Made by a program: the position numbers and the translations under genes. Below, piece after piece: positions 36,693 to 46,105 of a stretch of 64,000 nucleotides of DNA (within the stretch, counting starts at the first letter, position 1; each line of letters opens with the position of its first letter). A model generated the notes under the pieces. The model had not been told where the DNA came from and searched no databases. It was given only the letters and a program-made list of their open reading frames with translations. Origin of the DNA: an uncultured Actinomycetota bacterium (GTDB taxonomy: Bacteria > Actinomycetota > Actinomycetes > Mycobacteriales > SCTD01); contig CAWDYD010000003.1 in the NCBI GenBank assembly GCA_963806415.1, positions 3,324-67,323 of the forward strand, written 5' to 3'.

Positions 36693-38860
36693 GTGGATCG
36701 ACTCGCCCGCACCGTCCTGCACCACCGCCGGCTGGTCTACGGCATCTGGCTGGTGCTGTTCCTGGCCGGTGCGGCCGCCGCGAGCACCGTCACCAACCGA
36801 CTGACCTTCGACTTCTCGCTGCCCGGCCAGCCCGGGTTCGAGGCCGAGCAGCAGCTGGTCGCCGAGTTCGGGGCGGGCACCTTCGACACGCTCGTGCCGG
36901 TCGTCACGGTGCCGCCGGGCCAGAGCGCGACGGCCCGGGCCGACGACATCCAGGCCGTGTTCGACGCGGTCCGCGTGCAGGTGCCGCAGGCCCGCATCGT
37001 CGGCCCGGCGACCGGCGGGACGGCCGGCGGGCTCGCTCCGGCCTTCCTCACCGACGACGGGCGCAGCGCCTTCGCGCTCGTGCAGGGACCGCAGCCGGCG
37101 GGCTTCGGGCCGGGGATCGAGGCGGTCGTCGGGCCGGCCCTGGAGCAGGCTGCGGCGCAGACCGGCCTGGAGGCCGGCCTCACCTCGTACGGGCTGCTGT
37201 CGGCGGGTGGCGACACCGAGGGCCCGAGCGTGCTCGCCGAGACCCTGCTCGGCGCCACCGGCGCGCTCGCGGTGCTCGCCTTCGTCTTCGCCTCGTTGCT
37301 CGCCCTGGTGCCGCTGCTGATCGCCGCGGTCTCGATCCTGACGACCTTCCTGCTCGTGCTGGGCCTGACCTACGTCACCGACGTCAGCTTCGTCGTGCAG
37401 TTCCTCATCTCGCTGGTCGGTCTCGGCGTCGCGATCGACTACTCGCTGCTGCTGGTGTCCCGCTGGCGGGAGGAGCGCGCGCACGGCCGCCGCCAACGAG
37501 GAGGCGGTGGTCGTGGCGATGCAGACCGCCGGGCACGCCGTGCTGGCCTCCGGGGTGACCGTCGCGATCAGCCTGGTCGCGCTGGTCGTCGTGCCGGTGC
37601 CGTTCCTGCGCAGCATGGGCCTCGGCGGCATGCTCATCCCGCTGGTCAGCGTCGCGGTGGTCCTCACGCTGCTGCCGGCGCTGCTCGCCGGGATCGGCCC
37701 GCGCGTCGACTGGCCGCGGCTGCGCAAGGAGGGCGTCGCCGCGCGTGGGTGGTCGGCCTGGGCCCGCGCCATCGTCGGGCACCGCTGGATCGCCGCCGGC
37801 GTCGCGCTGCTGCTGCTCGGGCTGCTGGTCGCCCCGGTCGCCGGGCTGAAGATCGGGCAGTCCGACACCACGTCGCTGGCCCGCAGCGGACCGCCGTTCG
37901 AGGCGCTGGCGCAGCTGCAGGAGGCGGGGTGTCGGCACCGGCGTGCTCACCCCCATCGAGGTGCTCGTGCCGGCCGGGCAGGCGGCCGCCGCCGCGCAGG
38001 CCGCCGCCGGGGTGGACGGCGTCCGCACCGCGGTCGTCGGGGGCGTGAGCGACAGCGCGGCCGTCATCGACGTCATCCCGCTGCGCCGAGACGGTCGACA
38101 GCGAGAGCAACCGGGTGGTCGAGCAGGTCCGGGCGGCGGTCGAGGGGGCGGTCGAGGGCCCGGTCGGGATCACCGGCGCCGGCGCCGTCGTCGAGGACTA
38201 CTTCGGTGCGGTCTACAGCAACTTCCCGTACGTGCTGGCGCTCATCGCCTGGCATCACGTTCCTGCTGCTCGTGCGGACGTTCCGCTCGCTGCTGCTGCC
38301 GATCAAGGCGGTGCTGCTCAACCTCGTCTCGCTGGCGGCGGTCTTCGGCGCGGTCGTCTTCTTCTGGCAGCAGGGCAACGGCTCGGACGCGGTCTTCGGG
38401 GTCGTCGGCGACCGGCGCCATCACGTTCTGGCTACCGGTGGTGATCTTCGCCTTCCTGTTCGGGCTGTCGATGGACTACGAGGTGTTCATCCTGGCCCGG
38501 ATGCGCGAGGAGTACGACGCGACCGGCTCCACCGCGCAGGCCGTCGTCACCGGGCTCGGCCGCACCGGACGGCTGGTCACCTCCGCCGCGCTCATCCTGT
38601 TCTTCGCGTTCGCGGCGCTGGCCTCCGCGCCGGGCACCGACATCAAGGTGCTCGGCACCGCGCTCGGCGTCGGCATCCTCATCGACGCCACGATCGTGCG
38701 GGCCCTGCTGGTGCCGGCCCTGGTCAGCCTGTTCGGGCGGTGGAACTGGTGGCTGCCGGCCGGGCTGGCCCGGGTGCTGCGGGTGGAGCCCTCACCGGTG
38801 GCGCCGGCCGGCAGCGAGCCGCCGCTGCCGGCCCGGGAACCGGTGGCCGCGGCGCGCTAG
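36693..38860 (+). CDS. MMPL/RND family transporter (several frameshifts)
   Basis: GLGVAIDYSLL..SRWREE, FGLSMDYEVF, TGRLVTSAA, DATIVR spread over consecutive frames. Confidence 0.88.
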
Positions 38861-39188: not shown

Positions 39189-39560
39189 ATGCTGGTCGTG
39201 ACGAGGTTCGACGTGCCGGAGAGCGAGTCGGCTGCCTTCCTGCTGCAGGCGCGGGCGGCGCTGGCCGCGTTCGCGGCCCGGCCCGGCTACCTGCGCGGCC
39301 GGGTCGGGCGGGCCGCCGACGACCCGACCGCCTGGGTGCTGACGACCGAGTGGGAGGGCGTGGGCGCCTACCGCCGGTCGCTCGGGGCGTACGAGGTCAA
39401 GGTCGACGCGGCGCCGCTGCTGGCCCGCGGCCGGGACGAGCCGAGCGCGTTCGAGGTGCTGCTGTCCGAGGACGGCACGCTGCCGTCGCGCCGGGCCGCC
39501 GACGCGGCGCGCACCGCCGTCGGCGAGTCCTCCGGGCCCGCGCGCACCGACCTGCCCTGA
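39189..39560 (+). CDS. Antibiotic biosynthesis monooxygenase-like (ABM) protein
   Basis: [23 protein letters not shown]; position upstream of glyQS. Confidence 0.8.
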
Positions 39561-39619
39561 CGGCGGCGGGTAGCGTTCGGGCCTCACCCGACAGCCAGCC
39601 GGACACCAGGAGAGCAGCC

Positions 39620-40984
39620 ATGGCCAGCAAGCCCGACCGCATGGACACCATCGTCAGCCTCGCCAAGCGACGCGGCCTGGTGTTCCCGTCCTCGGAGATC
39701 TACGGCGGTCTGCGGGCGTCCTGGGACTACGGCCCGCTCGGCGTGGAGCTGAAGAACAACGTCAAGCGGCAGTGGTGGCGCTCGATGGTGCAGGAGCGCG
39801 AGGACGTCGTCGGGCTGGACAGCTGCGTCATCCTCGCCCGCGAGGTGTGGGAGACCAGCGGCCACGTCGCCACCTTCGTCGACCCGCTGGTCGAGTGCAC
39901 CTCGTGCCACAAGCGGTTCCGGGCCGACCACCTCGAGGAGGGCGCCGGCAAGCCGCTCGCCGAGCTGGCCTGCCCGAACTGCGGCAACCGCGGCACCTGG
40001 ACCGAGCCCAAGGACTTCAACGGGCTGCTGAAGACCTCGCTGGGCCCGGTCGACGACGGCACCGGGCTGGCGTACCTGCGCCCGGAGACCGCCCAGGGCA
40101 TCTTCATCAACTACCTCAACGTGCAGCAGAGCTCGCGCAAGAAGCCGCCGTTCGGCATCGGCCAGATCGGCAAGAGCTTCCGCAACGAGATCACTCCGGG
40201 CAACTTCATCTTCCGGACCCGCGAGTTCGAGCAGATGGAGATGGAGTTCTTCGTCAAGCCCGGCGAGGACGCCGAGTGGCACTCGTACTGGATCGACGAG
40301 CGGATGCGCTGGTACACCGACCTCGGCATCGCCCCGGACGCGCTGCGGCTGTTCGAGCACCCGAAGGAGAAGCTCAGCCACTACTCGACCCGCACCGTGG
40401 ACATCGAGTACCGGTTCGGCTTCCCGGGCAGCGAGTGGGGCGAGCTCGAGGGCATCGCGAACCGGACCGACTACGACCTCACGGTGCACAGCAAGGCCTC
40501 CGGCACGTCGCTGGACTACTTCGACCAGGAGTCCGGCGAGCGCTGGACGCCGTACGTCATCGAGCCGGCGGCCGGCGTCGACCGGGCCGCCCTGACGTTC
40601 CTGCTCGACGCCTACAGCGAGGACGAGGCCCCGAACGCCAAGGGCGGCGTCGACAAGCGGGTCGTGCTGCGGCTGGACCCGCGGCTGGCGCCGGTCAAGG
40701 CCGCCGTGCTGCCGCTGTCGCGCAACGCCGACCTGTCGCCGGTGGCCCGCTCGCTCGCGGCCGCGCTGCGCAAGCGCTTCCCGACCGACTTCGACGACGC
40801 CGGCGCGATCGGCCGCCGCTACCGCCGGCAGGACGAGGTCGGGACGCCGTTCTGCGTCACGGTCGACTTCGACAGCCTGCAGGACCAGGCCGTCACCGTC
40901 CGCTCGCGCGACGAGATGACCCAGGAGCGGGTCGGGCTCGACGCGGTGGAGCGCTACCTCAGCGACAAGCTCGGCCCGCTGTAG
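39620..40984 (+). CDS. glyQS: Glycine--tRNA ligase (alpha2 type)
   Basis: [34 protein letters not shown]. Confidence 0.97.
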
Positions 40985-40991
40985 GCGGCGC

Positions 40992-42308
40992 CTACCGCAC
41001 GAAGATGTCGCTGGTCCCGTTCGTGTCGCGAGGCACGAGGTTGCTGGCGTCGGAGTAGAAGCCGACCGCGCCGGTCGTGCTCACCGTGGCGTTCCCGGCG
41101 TCCAGGACGGCCGCGCTCGGCCCGTTGGCCTGCACACCGGCCGGGCCGACGCTGCTGCGCAGCAGCGTGCCGGTCTGCCGGTCGAGCCGGAACACGTCCA
41201 TCACGCCGTTCGTGTCGCCCGCGACCAGGTTCGACGCCGTCGAGGAGTACGCCAGGTAGCGGCCGTCCGCGCTGAACGCCGGCATCAGGCTGCGGCCGTT
41301 CGTCGCACCGCCCGCGGCCGAGCGGCTGACCTGGGTCGTCGTGCCGGTCGTCCGGTCGTGCAGGTAGATGTCGTCGTTGGCCTTGCCGTCGGTGGCCGCG
41401 AGCCTGCCCTTGGAGGAGAACGCCACGAGGCGGCCGTCACCGCTCAGCGTCGGACCGAAGCTGGGGCCGGTGGACTGCGCACCGGTCGAGGACACGCTGA
41501 CCCGCTGCGTGGTCGCGGTGCCGAGGTCGTGCACGAACACGTCGGAGACCCCGTTCGTGTCGCCGTCGACCAGGTCCGGCGCCAGCGAGTAGAAGGTGAC
41601 GACGCGGCCGTCGGCGCTGATCCAGGGGGAGTGGCTGTCGCCCCGGCCCTCCCGGCCCGCGCTGGACACGCTGACCCGCACGGTCGTGCCGGTGAGCGTG
41701 TCGTGCACGAAGGTGTCGGGCTGGCTGTTGCGGTCGTTCGGCACCAGCGTCGTGGCGTGCGAGGAGTAGGCCACGTACCGGCCGTCCGCGCTCAGCGACG
41801 CCTGGCTCGAGTACTTGTCGGTCTCGGCGCCCGTGCTGCTGACGGTGGCCCGGACCGTCGTGCCGGTGCTGCGGTCGTGCACGAAGACGTCCGACTGCCC
41901 GTTGCGGTCGCCCTCGACGAGGTTGGTGGCGTACGAGCTGTAGGCGACGAACCGGCCGTCGGCGCTGAGCGACGGCGAGAAGCTGGCCCGGTCGGCCTGC
42001 CGGCCCTGCGGCCCGACGCTGACCCGTTCCAGGGCGCCGGTCTGCAGGTCGCGCACGAAGATGTCGAACAGGCCGTTGGTGTCGCCCGGGACGAGGGTGC
42101 TCGCCCCGGAGCCGAAGGCGAGGAACCGGCCGTCGGCCGAGATCGCCGGCCGGGTGCTCTTGGCGTTGGCCTGCGCTCCCGCAGCGGACTCGCTGGCCCG
42201 GACGGTCTCCGGCTCGACAGCGCCGGCCGGGGTCGCGCCGAGCAGCAGCCCGACCGTCACGGCCCCGACGCCGTACCGCCGCCACGTACGGGTCTGCTCG
42301 CTGGCCAT
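40992..42308 (-). CDS. Secreted TolB-like beta-propeller repeat protein
   Basis: Signal peptide; seven repeats of about 57 aa, SADGRxVAxxSxAxNLVxGDxNGxxDVFV; GAGAG RBS. Confidence 0.85.
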   Translation of the reverse strand: MASEQTRTWRRYGVGAVTVGLLLGATPAGAVEPETVRASESAAGAQANAKSTRPAISADGRFLAFGSGASTLVPGDTNGLFDIFVRDLQTGALERVSVGPQGRQADRASFSPSLSADGRFVAYSSYATNLVEGDRNGQSDVFVHDRSTGTTVRATVSSTGAETDKYSSQASLSADGRYVAYSSHATTLVPNDRNSQPDTFVHDTLTGTTVRVSVSSAGREGRGDSHSPWISADGRVVTFYSLAPDLVDGDTNGVSDVFVHDLGTATTQRVSVSSTGAQSTGPSFGPTLSGDGRLVAFSSKGRLAATDGKANDDIYLHDRTTGTTTQVSRSAAGGATNGRSLMPAFSADGRYLAYSSTASNLVAGDTNGVMDVFRLDRQTGTLLRSSVGPAGVQANGPSAAVLDAGNATVSTTGAVGFYSDASNLVPRDTNGTSDIFVR

Positions 42309-42518
42309 GGGCTCTCCTCGGGTCGGTGGCGGCGCCGCCGCCGGCCGGGTGCTCGCCCGTGCCGGCGGCAGCATGGCCCGGGGAGGAGGGGTGCGTCCGA
42401 CAATCGGGCGTTCTCGAGTGCGTGCGCCGGGGCGGCGCGGCCGCGCGCGTCGCGCCCGCGGTGCGCGTCGCGCCGCGGTGCGCGTCGCTGTGCGCCGGTC
42501 GCTGTGCGTGCGAGTCCT

Positions 42519-42583
42519 CGCGCTTGTCTGCCCGCACCGTGCCTTCCGGGGCGGATTCGTGACGGTGGAGGCAGACAAGCGCG
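42519..42583. repeat. REP-like palindromic unit 1
   Basis: 14-bp inverted arms CGCGCTTGTCTGCC (42519-42532) / GGCAGACAAGCGCG (42570-42583), 37-nt spacer. Confidence 0.85.
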
Positions 42584-42680
42584 CCCGGGCCAGCGCCGGA
42601 TCCGGGTTGCTGCTGGGGACGGGGCCGCCCTCCTGTGGGCGGTCGGCGCACGTCCTGCCGGCGACGGTCACCCTCGCCCC

Positions 42681-43579
42681 GTGCCCGACGTCGTCTCCCG
42701 CGCCCAGGCCGTCGAGGCCGGGTACGGGCCGCGTGCCATCGACGAGCTGGTCCGGTCCGGCCGGTGGCGTGCGCTCCGGCGCGGCACCTACCTCACCGGT
42801 CCGTCGCTGCCGACGGATGCGGCGGAGCACGAGGCCGTGCGGGTGAGGGCGGCTGTCCTGGCCACCGGGGTGCCCTGCGTGGGCAGCCACGAGTCCGCTG
42901 CCCTCGTCCACCGGCTGCCGCTCGTCGTTCCGTACGCAGGACCGCCGGTCCTCACCAGGATCAGGCACCCGGGCGGGCCGCGGGCCGCGGCCCGGCGGGG
43001 CGCGCCGCTCGTGGCGCAGGTGCCGCCGGAGCACCGGGTGCGGGTTCTCGGGGCCGAGGTCACCGGCCCGGCACGGACGGCGGTGGACCTGGCGCGCGTC
43101 CGGTCCGACCTGGCCGGCGTCGCCGCCCTGGACGCCGTCCTGCGTCGCGGAGTGCGCGCGCACGGAGCTGCTGGCTGTCCTCGACGCGCAGCGCGGGTGG
43201 CCCGGCGTGGCCCGGGCCCGGTCGCGCGTCCGGTTCGCCGACGGTCGCGCCGAGTCGGCCCTCGAGTCCGTCGGCCGGCTGCGCTTCCACCAGCTGGGCC
43301 TGCCGGCGCCGACCCTGCAGGCGGTGCTGGGCGACGCCGGCGGCCCGGTCGGCCGGGTCGACTTCTACTGGCCGGACGTCCGCACGGTCGGCGAGGCCGA
43401 CGGGCGCGGCCAAGTACCTCACCCGGCACGACCTGCTGGCCGAGAAGGACCGGGAGGACCGGCTCCGGGACGCGGGCTTCGAGGTCTTCCGGTTCGGCTG
43501 GCACGAGGCCGTGCACGACCCGGCGGTGCTGGGCGCCCGCGCGCTACGGGCCTTCGCGCGCGGGCGCCGACGCTCGTAG
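42681..43579 (+). CDS. AbiEi-type wHTH / DUF559-like (Vsr-type) nuclease-domain protein (two frameshifts, near 43160 and 43405)
   Basis: VVSRAQA...GRWRALRRGTY, SHESAA, TGPARTAVDLAR, ESALES..R, RVDFYW, GEADG..KY, EKDREDRLR..G.EVFR. Confidence 0.82.
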
Positions 43580-43725
43580 GCCGCGCCGCGGCGGCCGGGC
43601 TCGTCTGCCGCGGCCGCTGCCGCTGCCGCGGCCGGCGCCCGCCCGCTTGTCTGCCGGTGCCGCGCCACGGCGGCAGCTCTGCCGCGGCCCGCTGCCGCGG
43701 CCCGCAGCCCGCGTCCGGCGGCCGC

Positions 43726-43929
43726 GCTTGTCTGCCGGTAACGGGTCGCAGGGGGCCGCGCGGCGTGCGTACGGGCAGACAAGCGCCCGAACTCAGGGGA
43801 GCGCCCGGCGGTCCGCCCCCGCTGCGCTGCGCCTGGCGCGGGCTTGTCTGCCGGTACCGGGTCGCAGAGGGCCGCGCGGCGGGCGTACGGGCAGACATGC
43901 GCCCGAAGCCAGGGGAGCGCCGGCGGTCC
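43726..43929. repeat. Tandem REP-like palindromic units 2 and 3 (116-bp period)
   Basis: GCTTGTCTGCC 43726-43736 / GGCAGACAAGC 43774-43784 and GCTTGTCTGCC 43842-43852 / GGCAGACATGC 43890-43900; both spacers 37 nt; spacers and tails similar between units. Confidence 0.88.
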
Positions 43930-43960
43930 CGCCGCACGAACTAAGGGGAACCGCACGAAC

Positions 43961-44004
43961 AAAGGGGAGGAGGAGGGGAGAGGAGGAGGGGGGAGGAGGA
44001 GGAG
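43961..44004 (+). repeat. Purine-only GGA-rich tract
   Basis: 44 consecutive purines. Confidence 0.85.
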
Positions 44005-44018
44005 CCACCCCCGGACGG

Positions 44019-45332
44019 TCAGCGGTCCAGCGCCGCCGTCGGCAGGTCGGACGGGCTGCTGGTGCTCGGCGCCCCGGTCGCCCGGCGCTGCAGCAGGCGC
44101 ATGACCCGGTAGGTCACGACCGCAGCGAGGGAGCCGATCGAGATGCCCTCGAAGGACAGCTCGCCGGCCTCGAAGGAGTAGTTCGCCGCCCCGATGATGA
44201 CGGCGATCGCGGCGGTCACCAGGTTGACCGGGTCGCGGAAGTCGATCCGGGACTCGATCCAGATCCGGGCGCCGAGGACGGCGATGAGGCCGTACAGCAC
44301 GGTGGTGACCCCGCCGAGCACGCCCACCGGGATGGCGGCGACGACCGCGCCGACCTTGGGGGACAGGCCGAGCAGGATCGCGAACACCCCGGCGACGTAG
44401 TACGGCGCGGTGGAGTAGACGCGGGTGGCGGCCATCACCCCGATGTTCTCGGCGTACGTCGTGGTGCCCGAGCCGCCGCCGAACCCGGCGACGACGGTGG
44501 CCAGGCCGTCGCCGATGTACGCCCGGCCCATCGTGTCGTCGAGCGACCGCTCGGTCATCGACGCGACGGCCTTGACGTGCCCGGTGTTCTCGGCGACGAG
44601 CACCAGCACCACCGGCAGGACGAGCACGACCGCGTGCAGCGTGAAGGTCGGCGTCGTGAACTCCGGCAGGCCGACCCAGCCGGCCTCGCGCACCGCGTCG
44701 AACGACACGTCGCCGCGCAGCGCGGTCAGCAGGTACCCGACCACGACTCCGAGCACGATCGACAGGCGCCCGAGCAGCCCGCGGGACGCGACCGTGACCA
44801 CGACGACCACGAGCAGCGTGACGAGCGCGACGAACGGGTCCTCGGCGAAGTTCGCCTTCGCGACCGGCGCCAGGTTCAGGCCGATGAGCAGCACGATCGC
44901 GCCGGTGACGACGGGCGGCAGCAGCCACTCCACCGGCCCGGTGCCGACCGCCTGCACGAGCACCCCGACCAGGGCCAGCAGCGCGCCGGCGGCGACGATC
45001 CCGCCGAGCGCCTCGGCCATCCCGCCGTCGGCCTGCGCCGCGGTGACCGGCGCGATGAACGCGAAGCTCGAGCCGAGGTAGCTGGGCAGCCGGTTGCGGG
45101 TCACCAGCAGGAACAGCAGCGTCCCGATCCCGGAGAACAGCAGCGTCGTGCTCGGCGGGAACCCGGTGAGCACCGGCACCAGGAAGGTCGCCCCGAACAT
45201 CGCCACGACGTGCTGCAGCCCGATCCCGATCGTGTACGGCCAGGCGAGGCGCTCGTCCGGGCGCACGACGGCGTCCGGCGCGACGGTCCGGCCGTCGCCG
45301 TGCAGGGTCCAGGGGGACACGGTGCTCCTCAT
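44019..45332 (-). CDS. Uracil/xanthine permease (NCS2)
   Basis: LQHVVAMFG, YLGSSFAFI, TTTYAENIG. Confidence 0.93.
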   Translation of the reverse strand: MRSTVSPWTLHGDGRTVAPDAVVRPDERLAWPYTIGIGLQHVVAMFGATFLVPVLTGFPPSTTLLFSGIGTLLFLLVTRNRLPSYLGSSFAFIAPVTAAQADGGMAEALGGIVAAGALLALVGVLVQAVGTGPVEWLLPPVVTGAIVLLIGLNLAPVAKANFAEDPFVALVTLLVVVVVTVASRGLLGRLSIVLGVVVGYLLTALRGDVSFDAVREAGWVGLPEFTTPTFTLHAVVLVLPVVLVLVAENTGHVKAVASMTERSLDDTMGRAYIGDGLATVVAGFGGGSGTTTYAENIGVMAATRVYSTAPYYVAGVFAILLGLSPKVGAVVAAIPVGVLGGVTTVLYGLIAVLGARIWIESRIDFRDPVNLVTAAIAVIIGAANYSFEAGELSFEGISIGSLAAVVTYRVMRLLQRRATGAPSTSSPSDLPTAALDR

Positions 45333-45463
45333 GCGCAGGGGAAGGGCGCGCGAGAGGGTAGCGGCGCGGACCGCTCGCCCCGGATTCCCCGAGGTGGCGG
45401 GGCCGGAGCGGGCGCGGGCCCGAGGTGGCCGGGCCCGAGGTGGCGGGGGCTAGCGTCGGGCAG

Positions 45464-46105
45464 GTGCGCACCCTCGTCGTCGACCACCCGCTCGTCGCCC
45501 ACAAGCTGACCGCGCTGCGCGATGTCCGGACCGACTCGCCGACCTTCCGCCGGCTGGCCGACGAGCTCGTGACGCTGCTGGCGTACGAGGCGACCCGGGC
45601 GATCCGCACCGAGCCGGTCGAGGTGAGCACCCCGGTCGCTCCGGCCGCCGGGGTGCGCCTGGCCCGGCCGCTGCCGCTGGTGGTGCCGGTGCTGCGGGCC
45701 GGTCTCGGCATGCTCGACGGGATGACCCGGCTGCTGCCGACCGCCGAGGTGGGCTTCCTCGGGATGGTGCGGGACGAGGGCTCGCTGGTCGCCACGACCT
45801 ACGCCACCCGGCTGCCCGAGGACCTGTCCCGGCGGGAGGTGTTCGTGCTCGACCCCATGCTCGCCACCGGCGGCACCCTGGTGGCGACCATCGACCTGCT
45901 GGTGCAGCGCGGTGCCAGCAGCGTCACGGCGATCTGCCTGCTGGCAGCCCCCGAGGGCCTGGCCCGGGTCGACGAGGCCTTCCGGGACGACGCGGGCTGC
46001 CCGGTGACGGTGGTCACGGCCGGGGTCGACGAGCGGCTCGACGAGCGGGGCTACATCACGCCCGGTCTCGGCGACGCCGGCGACCGGTTGTACGGCGTGG
46101 TCTGA
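45464..46105 (+). CDS. upp: Uracil phosphoribosyltransferase
   Basis: [28 protein letters not shown]. Confidence 0.96.

Follow-up and report, generated by a model that had tools for sequence, protein, structure and literature searches.

The DNA analysed here, hereafter the window, is a stretch of 64 kb (G000:C3:3324-67323) of the genome G000, an assembly of 3.2 Mb in 5 contigs with a G+C content of 75% and rated as 70% complete. At 42681..43579, on the forward strand, it contains a nuclease gene of 0.9 kb, the sole gene within 42300-44020, which is bounded on both sides by palindromic units of one family (family A). Its AbiEi_4 match, its orthologues and the fold of the orthologue of genome G009 assign its product to an AbiEi-type winged helix-turn-helix (wHTH) module joined to a Vsr/DUF559-like nuclease of the PD-(D/E)XK type. 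The start codon is predicted to be the GTG at 42681, and the gene is read in three frames (42681-43154, 43156-43407 and 43403-43579). The frame breaks, near 43155 and 43405, each correspond to one surplus base in a G/C run. The first 158 codons matched AbiEi_4 (E 4.4e-7, 30.3 bits, cut-off 25). The C-terminal pieces alone matched no Pfam or NCBIfam model, and NCBIfam gave no match with any of the three pieces.

The arm of the flanking palindromes, GCTTGTCTGCC, was found 8 times in the window with at most one mismatch, all copies lying inside 42522-43900, against a mean of 1.38 in shuffled sequences; a count of 8 was reached in 0 of 100 shuffles. Three full units of the form GCTTGTCTGCC-N37-GGCAGACA(A/T)GC were identified, with a spacer of exactly 37 nt in each. 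The upstream one, GCTTGTCTGCC-N37-GGCAGACAAGC, is a hairpin unit of 59 nt (42522..42580) located 100 nt ahead of the gene start, and folded as DNA it gave -20.2 kcal/mol (z -4.5 with respect to its shuffles, as for the z scores below). The first downstream unit, also of 59 nt, was recognised by arm search and fold at 43726..43784 (-20.8 kcal/mol, z -4.2). The second (43842..43900, 59 nt) has one arm mismatch, GGCAGACATGC, and a fold z of -2.1; it is a tandem duplicate of the first, both belonging to a duplicated segment of 95 nt (87% identical, 116 nt apart), and therefore the two are not independent of each other. In addition, a lone degenerate arm with one mismatch (GCTCGTCTGCC, 43599..43609) lies 20 nt past the stop codon, and a lone exact arm GCTTGTCTGCC is found at 43645..43655 without a partner arm at N37. 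This arrangement agrees with a preliminary description of the locus, made from its sequence, which had placed one unit upstream and two downstream with a 37-nt spacer and had reported both lone arms; only the start coordinates that it gave for the units were off by 1 nt. Its view of the spacer as a free sequence, however, had to be abandoned. In the better-preserved copies of G009 and G076 the consensus unit forms a stem of about 23 bp, which includes an inner stem of 12 bp, closed by a loop of about 13 nt, so the family A spacer is structured.

After the downstream units, at 43783..43969 on the forward strand, repeat search and reading of the sequence revealed four copies of a direct motif of about 19 nt ending in AGGGGA(G/A), one after each unit and then two more. 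Similar motifs also adjoin family A units elsewhere in G000. Those of the window may represent subterminal repeats belonging to the element.

Family A is dispersed in the genome. Exact GCTTGTCTGCC arms occur 22 times in G000, 11 per strand, and form 12 units at 7 loci, the window locus among them. A gene-less tandem array of four units is found at C5:71531-71869, and solo units sit between convergent genes. When the family genomes were scanned allowing at most 2 arm mismatches, 10 units were obtained in G000, 26 in G009 and 21 in G076, versus 0 in 58 other family genomes, and the reversed-pattern control was also 0. Exactly one clean comparison between a filled and an empty site was possible: the solo unit at G000 C5:588431 lies in an intergenic region of about 200 nt, and its counterpart in G009 is a unit-free spacer of 42 nt, although G009 has 27 units elsewhere. 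An empty site in a relative, as the preliminary description had proposed to look for, was thus encountered.

When G000 was searched under strict conditions for pairs of hairpins with the same arms, 400-3000 nt from each other, three places were obtained: the window gene, a small DUF1059/SnoaL-like gene and a pair made of G and C only, which is probably due to chance. No homologue of the protein family was detected within 3 kb of 19 other G000 unit loci. The DUF1059/SnoaL-like gene (C5:94263-95300, that is L008 522-1559), which has one frame break, lies between two family A units and may be cargo between them. Relatives lack a counterpart of the piece between these units, and the sequences on either side of it are not neighbours in them, so the place is uninformative as an empty-site test. 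At least four more hairpin families, with units of 57-68 nt, are present in G000, A and B being the commonest. Families D, E and F (CCACAGCTGA...TCAGCTGTGG, CCACAGCCGATC...GATCGGCTGTGG and GCGTCCACCT...AGGTGGACGC), some of them in tandem arrays, were located at C1:100447-100742, at C2:41449-41791 and at C1:43158, 100118 and 315821.

Two other copies of the gene in G000 are accompanied by other repeats. The paralogue at C5:1787188-1788066, intact and 34% identical to the window gene, has an exact CGATCATGGA-N39-TCCATGATCG unit upstream and a degenerate copy downstream; this 59-nt unit defines family B, with 8 exact units genome-wide. A second one (C5:1640925-1642034, intact, 46% identical) lies between arrays of the motif TCCCCT(T/G)CG / CGAAGGGGA, which has 110 copies in G000.

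Orthologues of the window gene, with identities measured over its first 158 residues, have units of the same size. The G009 orthologue (58%, intact, 305 amino acids) has two family A units on each side, and that of G076 (52%, one frameshift) has two units upstream and one downstream, all of them N37. Upstream of the orthologue of the unpublished genome G002 (62%), whose contig stops at the gene, there is one unit of family A type, GCTTGTCCGCC / GACGGACAAGC, with a spacer of exactly 37 nt; G002 was used only for this variant unit and for its occupied synthetase site, described below, and the conclusions hold without it. The G017 orthologue (51%) has 59-nt units GCT(C/T)GTCCGAG...GGACAAGC. In G049 (61%) the arms are different, GCTCCTGCGGG-N37-CCCGCAGGAGC on both sides, and the 11+37+11 geometry is unchanged. 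Within this clade, the arms change with the gene and the geometry is kept.

A profile made from nine members of the protein family detected it in 113 of the 151 genomes of the order that were surveyed and in 137 of 201 of the class, with at most 10 copies per genome. At the 30 best loci of the order, and at 29 loci of other orders, the longest word common to the 350-nt upstream and downstream flanks was then determined, with a threshold of 13 nt and with flank pairs of mismatched loci as control. Words of at least 13 nt were shared at 21 of the 30 loci in the order, versus 29 of 870 mismatched pairs, and at 21 of the 29 loci of other orders, versus 52 of 812, which together makes 42 of 59 loci as compared with 3-6% in the controls. 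L054, one of the 30 loci, belongs to the unpublished genome G197; its flanks do not reach the threshold, and it supports no claim. Many of the flank pairs are hairpins of 57-93 nt with locus-specific arms. When flanks were compared across the 59 loci, a word of at least 13 nt was found for 15 of 16 protein pairs at least 55% identical and for 277 of 1562 pairs less than 45% identical, so that flank similarity tracks protein identity. The preliminary description had named three tests beforehand, namely dispersed copies, flanked homologues and co-varying arms, and all three gave a positive result, palindromes or inverted repeats being found around homologues throughout the order and the class. 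It had further proposed to test whether each clade has its own arms and a fixed spacer; the fixed geometry (59 nt) held in the window clade only, and other clades presented units of 57-93 nt or plain terminal inverted repeats (TIRs).

Flanking arms of other loci are also repeated in their own genomes. That of G127 gave 388 matches there (about 190 units of 70 nt) versus 0-3 in four other genomes, and those of G172 and G048 gave 14 and 21 matches, respectively, versus 0. The G127 unit, in a complete genome of 5.4 Mb (e.g., L046, L058-L065), is a 70-nt hairpin GTTCCCGCGCAC...GTGCGCGGGAAC whose density resembles that of repetitive extragenic palindromes (REPs).

Gene-less derivatives were also found in the genus g120 (family f28, of another order), where the gene lies between TIRs of 49-55 nt (55 nt in an element of 1.24 kb) with tips (A)ATGATCACGTT...AACGTGATCAT(T) and with repeated subterminal motifs. 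The G374 and G248 elements are bounded by similar tips. Tip copies with at most one mismatch numbered 54, 72 and 67 in three g120 genomes and 0 in the control. In G283, one tip pair bounds the 1.24-kb gene element and many others bound elements of 164-206 bp; in all nine of the latter that were fetched (9/9), the alignment with the gene element covers about 80 nt at each of its two ends. These gene-less two-tip derivatives, of about 185 bp, are scattered through the genome, and among the 54 tip places listed for G283 only the pair that bounds the nuclease gene has opposed tips separated by more than about 210 nt. In three species the gene element occupies one locus (flank identity 86-92%), with the opposite orientation in G283. 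Its gene is intact in all three (305-307 amino acids, 63-83% identical) and is under purifying selection, the ratio of non-synonymous to synonymous substitution rates (dN/dS) being 0.15-0.34.

Regarding the protein, residues 1-170 match AbiEi models with E-values down to 1e-16. The AlphaFold model of the G009 orthologue (mean predicted local distance difference test, pLDDT, of 84.7) was compared with the PDB using Foldseek. Its N-terminal half matched AbiEi (6y8q) and Rv2827c (1zel), and its C-terminal domain matched Vsr (1cw0), I-Bth0305I (3r3p; template modelling score 0.74, target-normalised) and NGO0050 (3hrl), with probabilities of 0.99-1.0 to 1cw0 and 3r3p and of 0.92 to 3hrl and with weak whole-chain E-values (0.14-0.8). 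All 9 aligned sequences have the same residues at D227, E238, D240 and K244. The modelled domain is consistent with a Vsr-like PD-(D/E)XK fold in which these acidic and lysine residues are putatively catalytic. The AbiEi-like wHTH and the nuclease-like domain named in the preliminary description were therefore recovered, the former through the AbiEi_4 match and the latter through the Vsr/DUF559 fold of intact relatives. At the sequence level, the PF04480 (DUF559) cut-off was reached by three G000 paralogues; the G017 orthologue scored 15.4 bits with a cut-off of 20.6. A PDB sequence search with a profile of the family alignment gave nothing at E up to 1. Pfam, NCBIfam and PADLOC returned only AbiEi and DUF559, and thus none of the known transposase classes (DDE, HUH, serine or tyrosine).

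The family appears in 4 of 72,556 plasmid records and in none of 50,697 phage records, and 1747 of 8000 scored public candidates passed E 1e-10. Public labels for the relatives are 'hypothetical protein' and, once, 'very-short-patch-repair endonuclease'. Most of the close metagenomic relatives (P0002-P0120) are on contigs of about 1.0-1.7 kb, a length close to that of the cassette. This probably reflects assemblies breaking at the flanking repeats; short contigs are also usual in that collection.

The chromosomal site of the cassette is shared by several relatives. On its left, the window contains a class II aminoacyl-tRNA synthetase gene (39560..40984, forward strand; Pfam tRNA-synt_2b and HGTP_anticodon), the conserved left neighbour in relatives, which we take to be of the glycyl type, followed by a PD40 beta-propeller gene (40992-42308, reverse strand) that adjoins the cassette. 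On its right there are a xanthine/uracil permease gene (44019..45332, reverse strand), the conserved right neighbour by synteny, and next to it a uracil phosphoribosyltransferase gene (45425-46105, forward strand). The neighbours being the PD40 and permease genes, no AbiEii nucleotidyltransferase gene is adjacent to the window gene, as already stated in the preliminary description, and AbiEii is not among the immediate neighbours in G009 either, which are the aminoacyl-tRNA synthetase and the permease. In G009, G076 and G017 the cassette lies directly 3' of the same class II synthetase gene, with permease and/or uracil phosphoribosyltransferase genes on its right. The PD40 gene between synthetase and cassette is found in G000 only, being absent from that position in G009, G076 and G017. 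The gene orientation in G009 is inverted with respect to G000, G076 and G017. The synthetase site is also occupied in G010, G014, G002 and, by a fragment, in G023, with proteins 45-57% identical and with arms such as CACTTCCCCTGC in G010 (61 nt) and ACTTCCCCAGGG in G023 (66 nt). No cassette is present there in G004, G013, G043, G045, G024, G056 and G046, where 0-143 nt separate the flanking genes, and occupied and empty states were seen side by side within the genera g6, g11, g14 and g15. It follows that the cassette was gained, replaced or cleanly lost there. The empty synthetase-permease spacer of G004 (L127, C2:50080-50320) contains three direct copies of GTCCGGGCAGCG, which shares CGGGCAG with the family A arm; these copies could be a remnant.

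Some other features of the locus were recorded. Just 5' of the first unit, at 42456-42508, there are tandem direct repeats (16 nt x2 and 11 nt x2). Between the last unit and the permease stop (43932-44005) lies a purine-rich tract with GGAGG-type repeats and AAGGGGA motifs, to which the motif TCCCCTTCG/CGAAGGGGA, the one with 110 copies in G000, is related. When 41500-45000 was compared with Rfam, accepting E-values up to 1, the only two matches were below threshold and away from the units, and so no known RNA family was found. The window stretch is partly present (shares of 0.05-0.10) in only 3 soil or sediment runs of one study, with no RNA run among those listed; over 42300-44100 the contigs of these runs stop short of the frameshift positions and contain no informative joints.

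The frame breaks of the window gene were not taken to make it a pseudogene, because such breaks are frequent in the G000 assembly; they are also found in the DUF1059/SnoaL-like gene and in the fourth G000 paralogue. In the window, the neighbouring gene at 36693-38839 shows at least 4 frame changes as compared with a single open frame in G009, which suggests an indel-rich assembly, fitting its 5 contigs and 70% completeness, or another broken gene. The G076 orthologue and one G127 copy are likewise broken, so that real decay of gene copies is possible, and the window copy itself, with its two frame breaks and less perfect hairpins, may be decaying.

With a probability of roughly 0.6, we interpret the family as a system similar to that of REP-associated tyrosine transposases (RAYTs) and their hairpin-forming REP doublets (REPINs), or to that of insertion sequences (ISs) and miniature inverted-repeat transposable elements (MITEs), built on a winged-helix/Vsr-like nuclease of neither the HUH nor the DDE type. 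What the window contains would then be the resident copy, complete with its gene, of a nuclease element bounded by repeats, the DNA-binding module of its only protein being made up of a winged helix and an AbiEi C-domain. The gene bounded by its own repeats, the gene-less derivatives, the lineage-specific termini and the vertical persistence with inversion and under purifying selection, observed together with the dispersal of the repeats, their co-variation with the gene and one filled/empty site, all fit this interpretation. Genome comparison leads us to infer that it is the nuclease, rather than another protein, that would bind, cut and move the repeats. AbiEi antitoxins bind inverted repeats and are autorepressors. 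By analogy, the winged-helix module would read the inverted arms, the nuclease would nick or cut at the arms or at the extruded hairpin, and host repair and recombination would copy, homogenise, delete or invert the bounded DNA. Such a model would explain the gene-less units, their differing positions in relatives and the flips in place. A broader proposal, which we put forward only tentatively, is that of a new mobile-element superfamily, present in most Actinomycetia, in which an AbiEi winged helix-Vsr-like nuclease, the sole protein and one unrelated to DDE, HUH, serine or tyrosine enzymes, would recognise the termini and drive repeat spread, homogenisation and inversion, and which would be the source of much intergenic hairpin DNA.

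To our knowledge, no enzyme family other than the HUH-type RAYTs, mainly described in proteobacteria, has been firmly linked to REPs. The likeness to RAYT-REPIN systems (PMC2817692, PMC3116915, PMC5581495) concerns the gene lying between its own palindromes, the gene-less intergenic hairpins, the several repeat families per genome each with its own gene copy, and the one or few gene copies inherited vertically at a fixed locus whose repeats change with the gene lineage, with G127 and G098 as exceptions to this last point. The systems differ in the enzyme, which here is an AbiEi winged helix with a Vsr/DUF559-like nuclease instead of an HUH Y1 protein, in the hosts, here Actinomycetia, in the copy number, here mostly tens and not hundreds (about 190 in G127), and in the plain long TIRs that some clades have instead of hairpins. 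The g120 element resembles an IS with its MITEs in having a single gene between inverted repeats, subterminal motifs and short two-end derivatives in tens. Unlike in ISs, the ends at the window are whole hairpin units and not single inverted repeats, no DDE, HUH, serine or tyrosine transposase was matched, and the gene-bearing copy is single, syntenic across species, nearly absent from plasmids and absent from phages. With the AbiE type IV toxin-antitoxin systems the family shares the AbiEi domain and fold (6y8q; Rv2827c, 1zel), but its AbiEi module is fused to a nuclease and has no adjacent AbiEii gene. The C-terminal fold resembles that of Vsr/DUF559 nucleases, including the homing endonuclease I-Bth0305I (PMC3424549, PMC3239194), which provide a precedent for selfish nucleases; Vsr, DUF559 and a homing endonuclease are grouped in one clade in a section of PMC3424549. 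The differences from them are that here there is no intron or intein and no neighbouring cytosine methyltransferase, that the nuclease is fused to AbiEi and bounded by repeats, and that the window clade falls under the Pfam cut-off. An invertible switch would have flanking inverted repeats, a dedicated invertase and both orientations within a population; here inverted repeats are present, both orientations are seen between species, and an invertase is not among the immediate neighbours. An integron attC cassette was also considered and dropped, given one unit type on both sides, 7 dispersed loci and gene-less tandem arrays, an integrase not having been searched for.

Matching flanks would also be expected if another enzyme moves the repeats and the AbiEi-nuclease gene is a passenger that inserts or homes between neighbouring copies, because insertion between repeat copies makes the flanks alike. 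Gene-less tandem arrays with units about 100 nt apart do exist (G000 C5:71531-71869; G076 C465 and C1), and insertion into them would give matching flanks; moreover, the units flanking one G127 copy are near-identical and inner stems differ between copies. At the synthetase site, several genera have diverged members whose arms differ and 7 genomes have no cassette, which could mean that insertion took place repeatedly at a favoured site. The closest solved folds of the C-terminal domain include a homing endonuclease, and no gene was found to accompany families D, E and F. We nevertheless regard this explanation as unlikely. No match to a Y1 transposase (Pfam Y1_Tnp, PF01797) was obtained in the 70%-complete G000, control genomes being matched by the same model, and there is no other wide tip pair among the listed G283 places. 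The G283 MITE-like elements keep about 80 nt of both ends and the subterminal motifs, as internal-deletion derivatives do. Furthermore, a homing gene would be multi-copy, whereas the gene-bearing copy is single per repeat family, syntenic and vertically kept, and the unrelated termini across the class would have needed capture or insertion many times.

Less probable still is a domesticated, non-mobile module, in which the repeats serve as operators, terminators/insulators or inversion arms and the scattered units are regulon sites or REP-like terminators. It would agree with the purifying selection and the single fixed locus, with the terminator-like position of solo units between convergent genes, with the autorepression that AbiEi antitoxins exert via inverted repeats and with an element flipped in place at least twice; in part of PMC9881135, 'DUF559 domain-containing protein' is enriched (odds ratio 14.3) among predicted programmed-inversion targets. 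An operator role, however, leaves the full downstream units unexplained, and neither the 10 to about 190 gene-less copies at differing positions nor the 185-bp two-end derivatives are accounted for. The immediate neighbours do not include an invertase gene, and the presence and absence of the cassette within genera fits a mobile or excisable element better. Finally, it is very improbable that the gene lies among these repeats by coincidence, in intergenic DNA simply rich in them. G127 unit pairs do bracket unrelated genes and G000 has at least 5 hairpin families, but there are only 7 family A loci in 3.2 Mb and yet both gene flanks carry units. A paralogue is flanked likewise by a different family, as are orthologues in other genera, and coincidence is contradicted by the flank-word (42 of 59 loci versus 3-6%) and hairpin-pair controls.

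Several observations weigh against the interpretation as a RAYT/REPIN- or IS/MITE-like nuclease system. Binding, cutting and movement are proposed from genome comparison, and we know of no lone PD-(D/E)XK nuclease that performs strand transfer. By eye, target-site duplication was not evident in 4 gene elements and 9 MITE-like elements, where the sequence just outside the tips belongs to the palindrome itself. The flank words fell below 13 nt at 9 of the 30 loci and at 8 of the 29, and only 2 of 6 paralogues of G098 and 1 of 2 of G283 are flanked, versus 5 of 5 in G342. The compared genomes are related and are not independent samples, and the co-variation count of close pairs is inflated because these are often syntenic. 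For G076, an oversized assembly with 6% contamination, the co-occurrence of gene and repeats may be an artefact of a mixed bin. In G127, unit pairs also bracket ordinary genes, as happens with REPs, and two paralogues 64-72% identical have common outer arms with copy-specific inner stems; divergence of the protein is therefore not always accompanied by divergence of the arms. In G000, the partner gene for families D, E and F was not found in the 70%-complete assembly, the fourth paralogue is frameshifted and a clear hairpin was not seen at it, and the window gene itself has frameshifts and weaker hairpins than the G009 and G076 units.

In the literature searched in full text, supplements excepted, no link of DUF559 or AbiEi nucleases to flanking or dispersed repeats was found, and the kind of repeat-spreading element proposed here is apparently new. 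Repeats of the REP and MITE types are a common feature of bacterial genomes. A widespread gene family (137 of 201 sampled Actinomycetia genomes), whose members are almost always labelled 'hypothetical protein', shows a RAYT-like signature with another enzyme. A repeat-bounded cassette probably explains the practical nuisance that contigs of about 1-1.7 kb, isolated from the rest of the genome, are where many family genes end up. Should the nuclease act on the repeats, a large family of unknown genes would receive a function, the origin of actinobacterial intergenic hairpins would be explained, and a new enzymatic way for repeats to spread and for DNA to be inverted locally would be added to those known.

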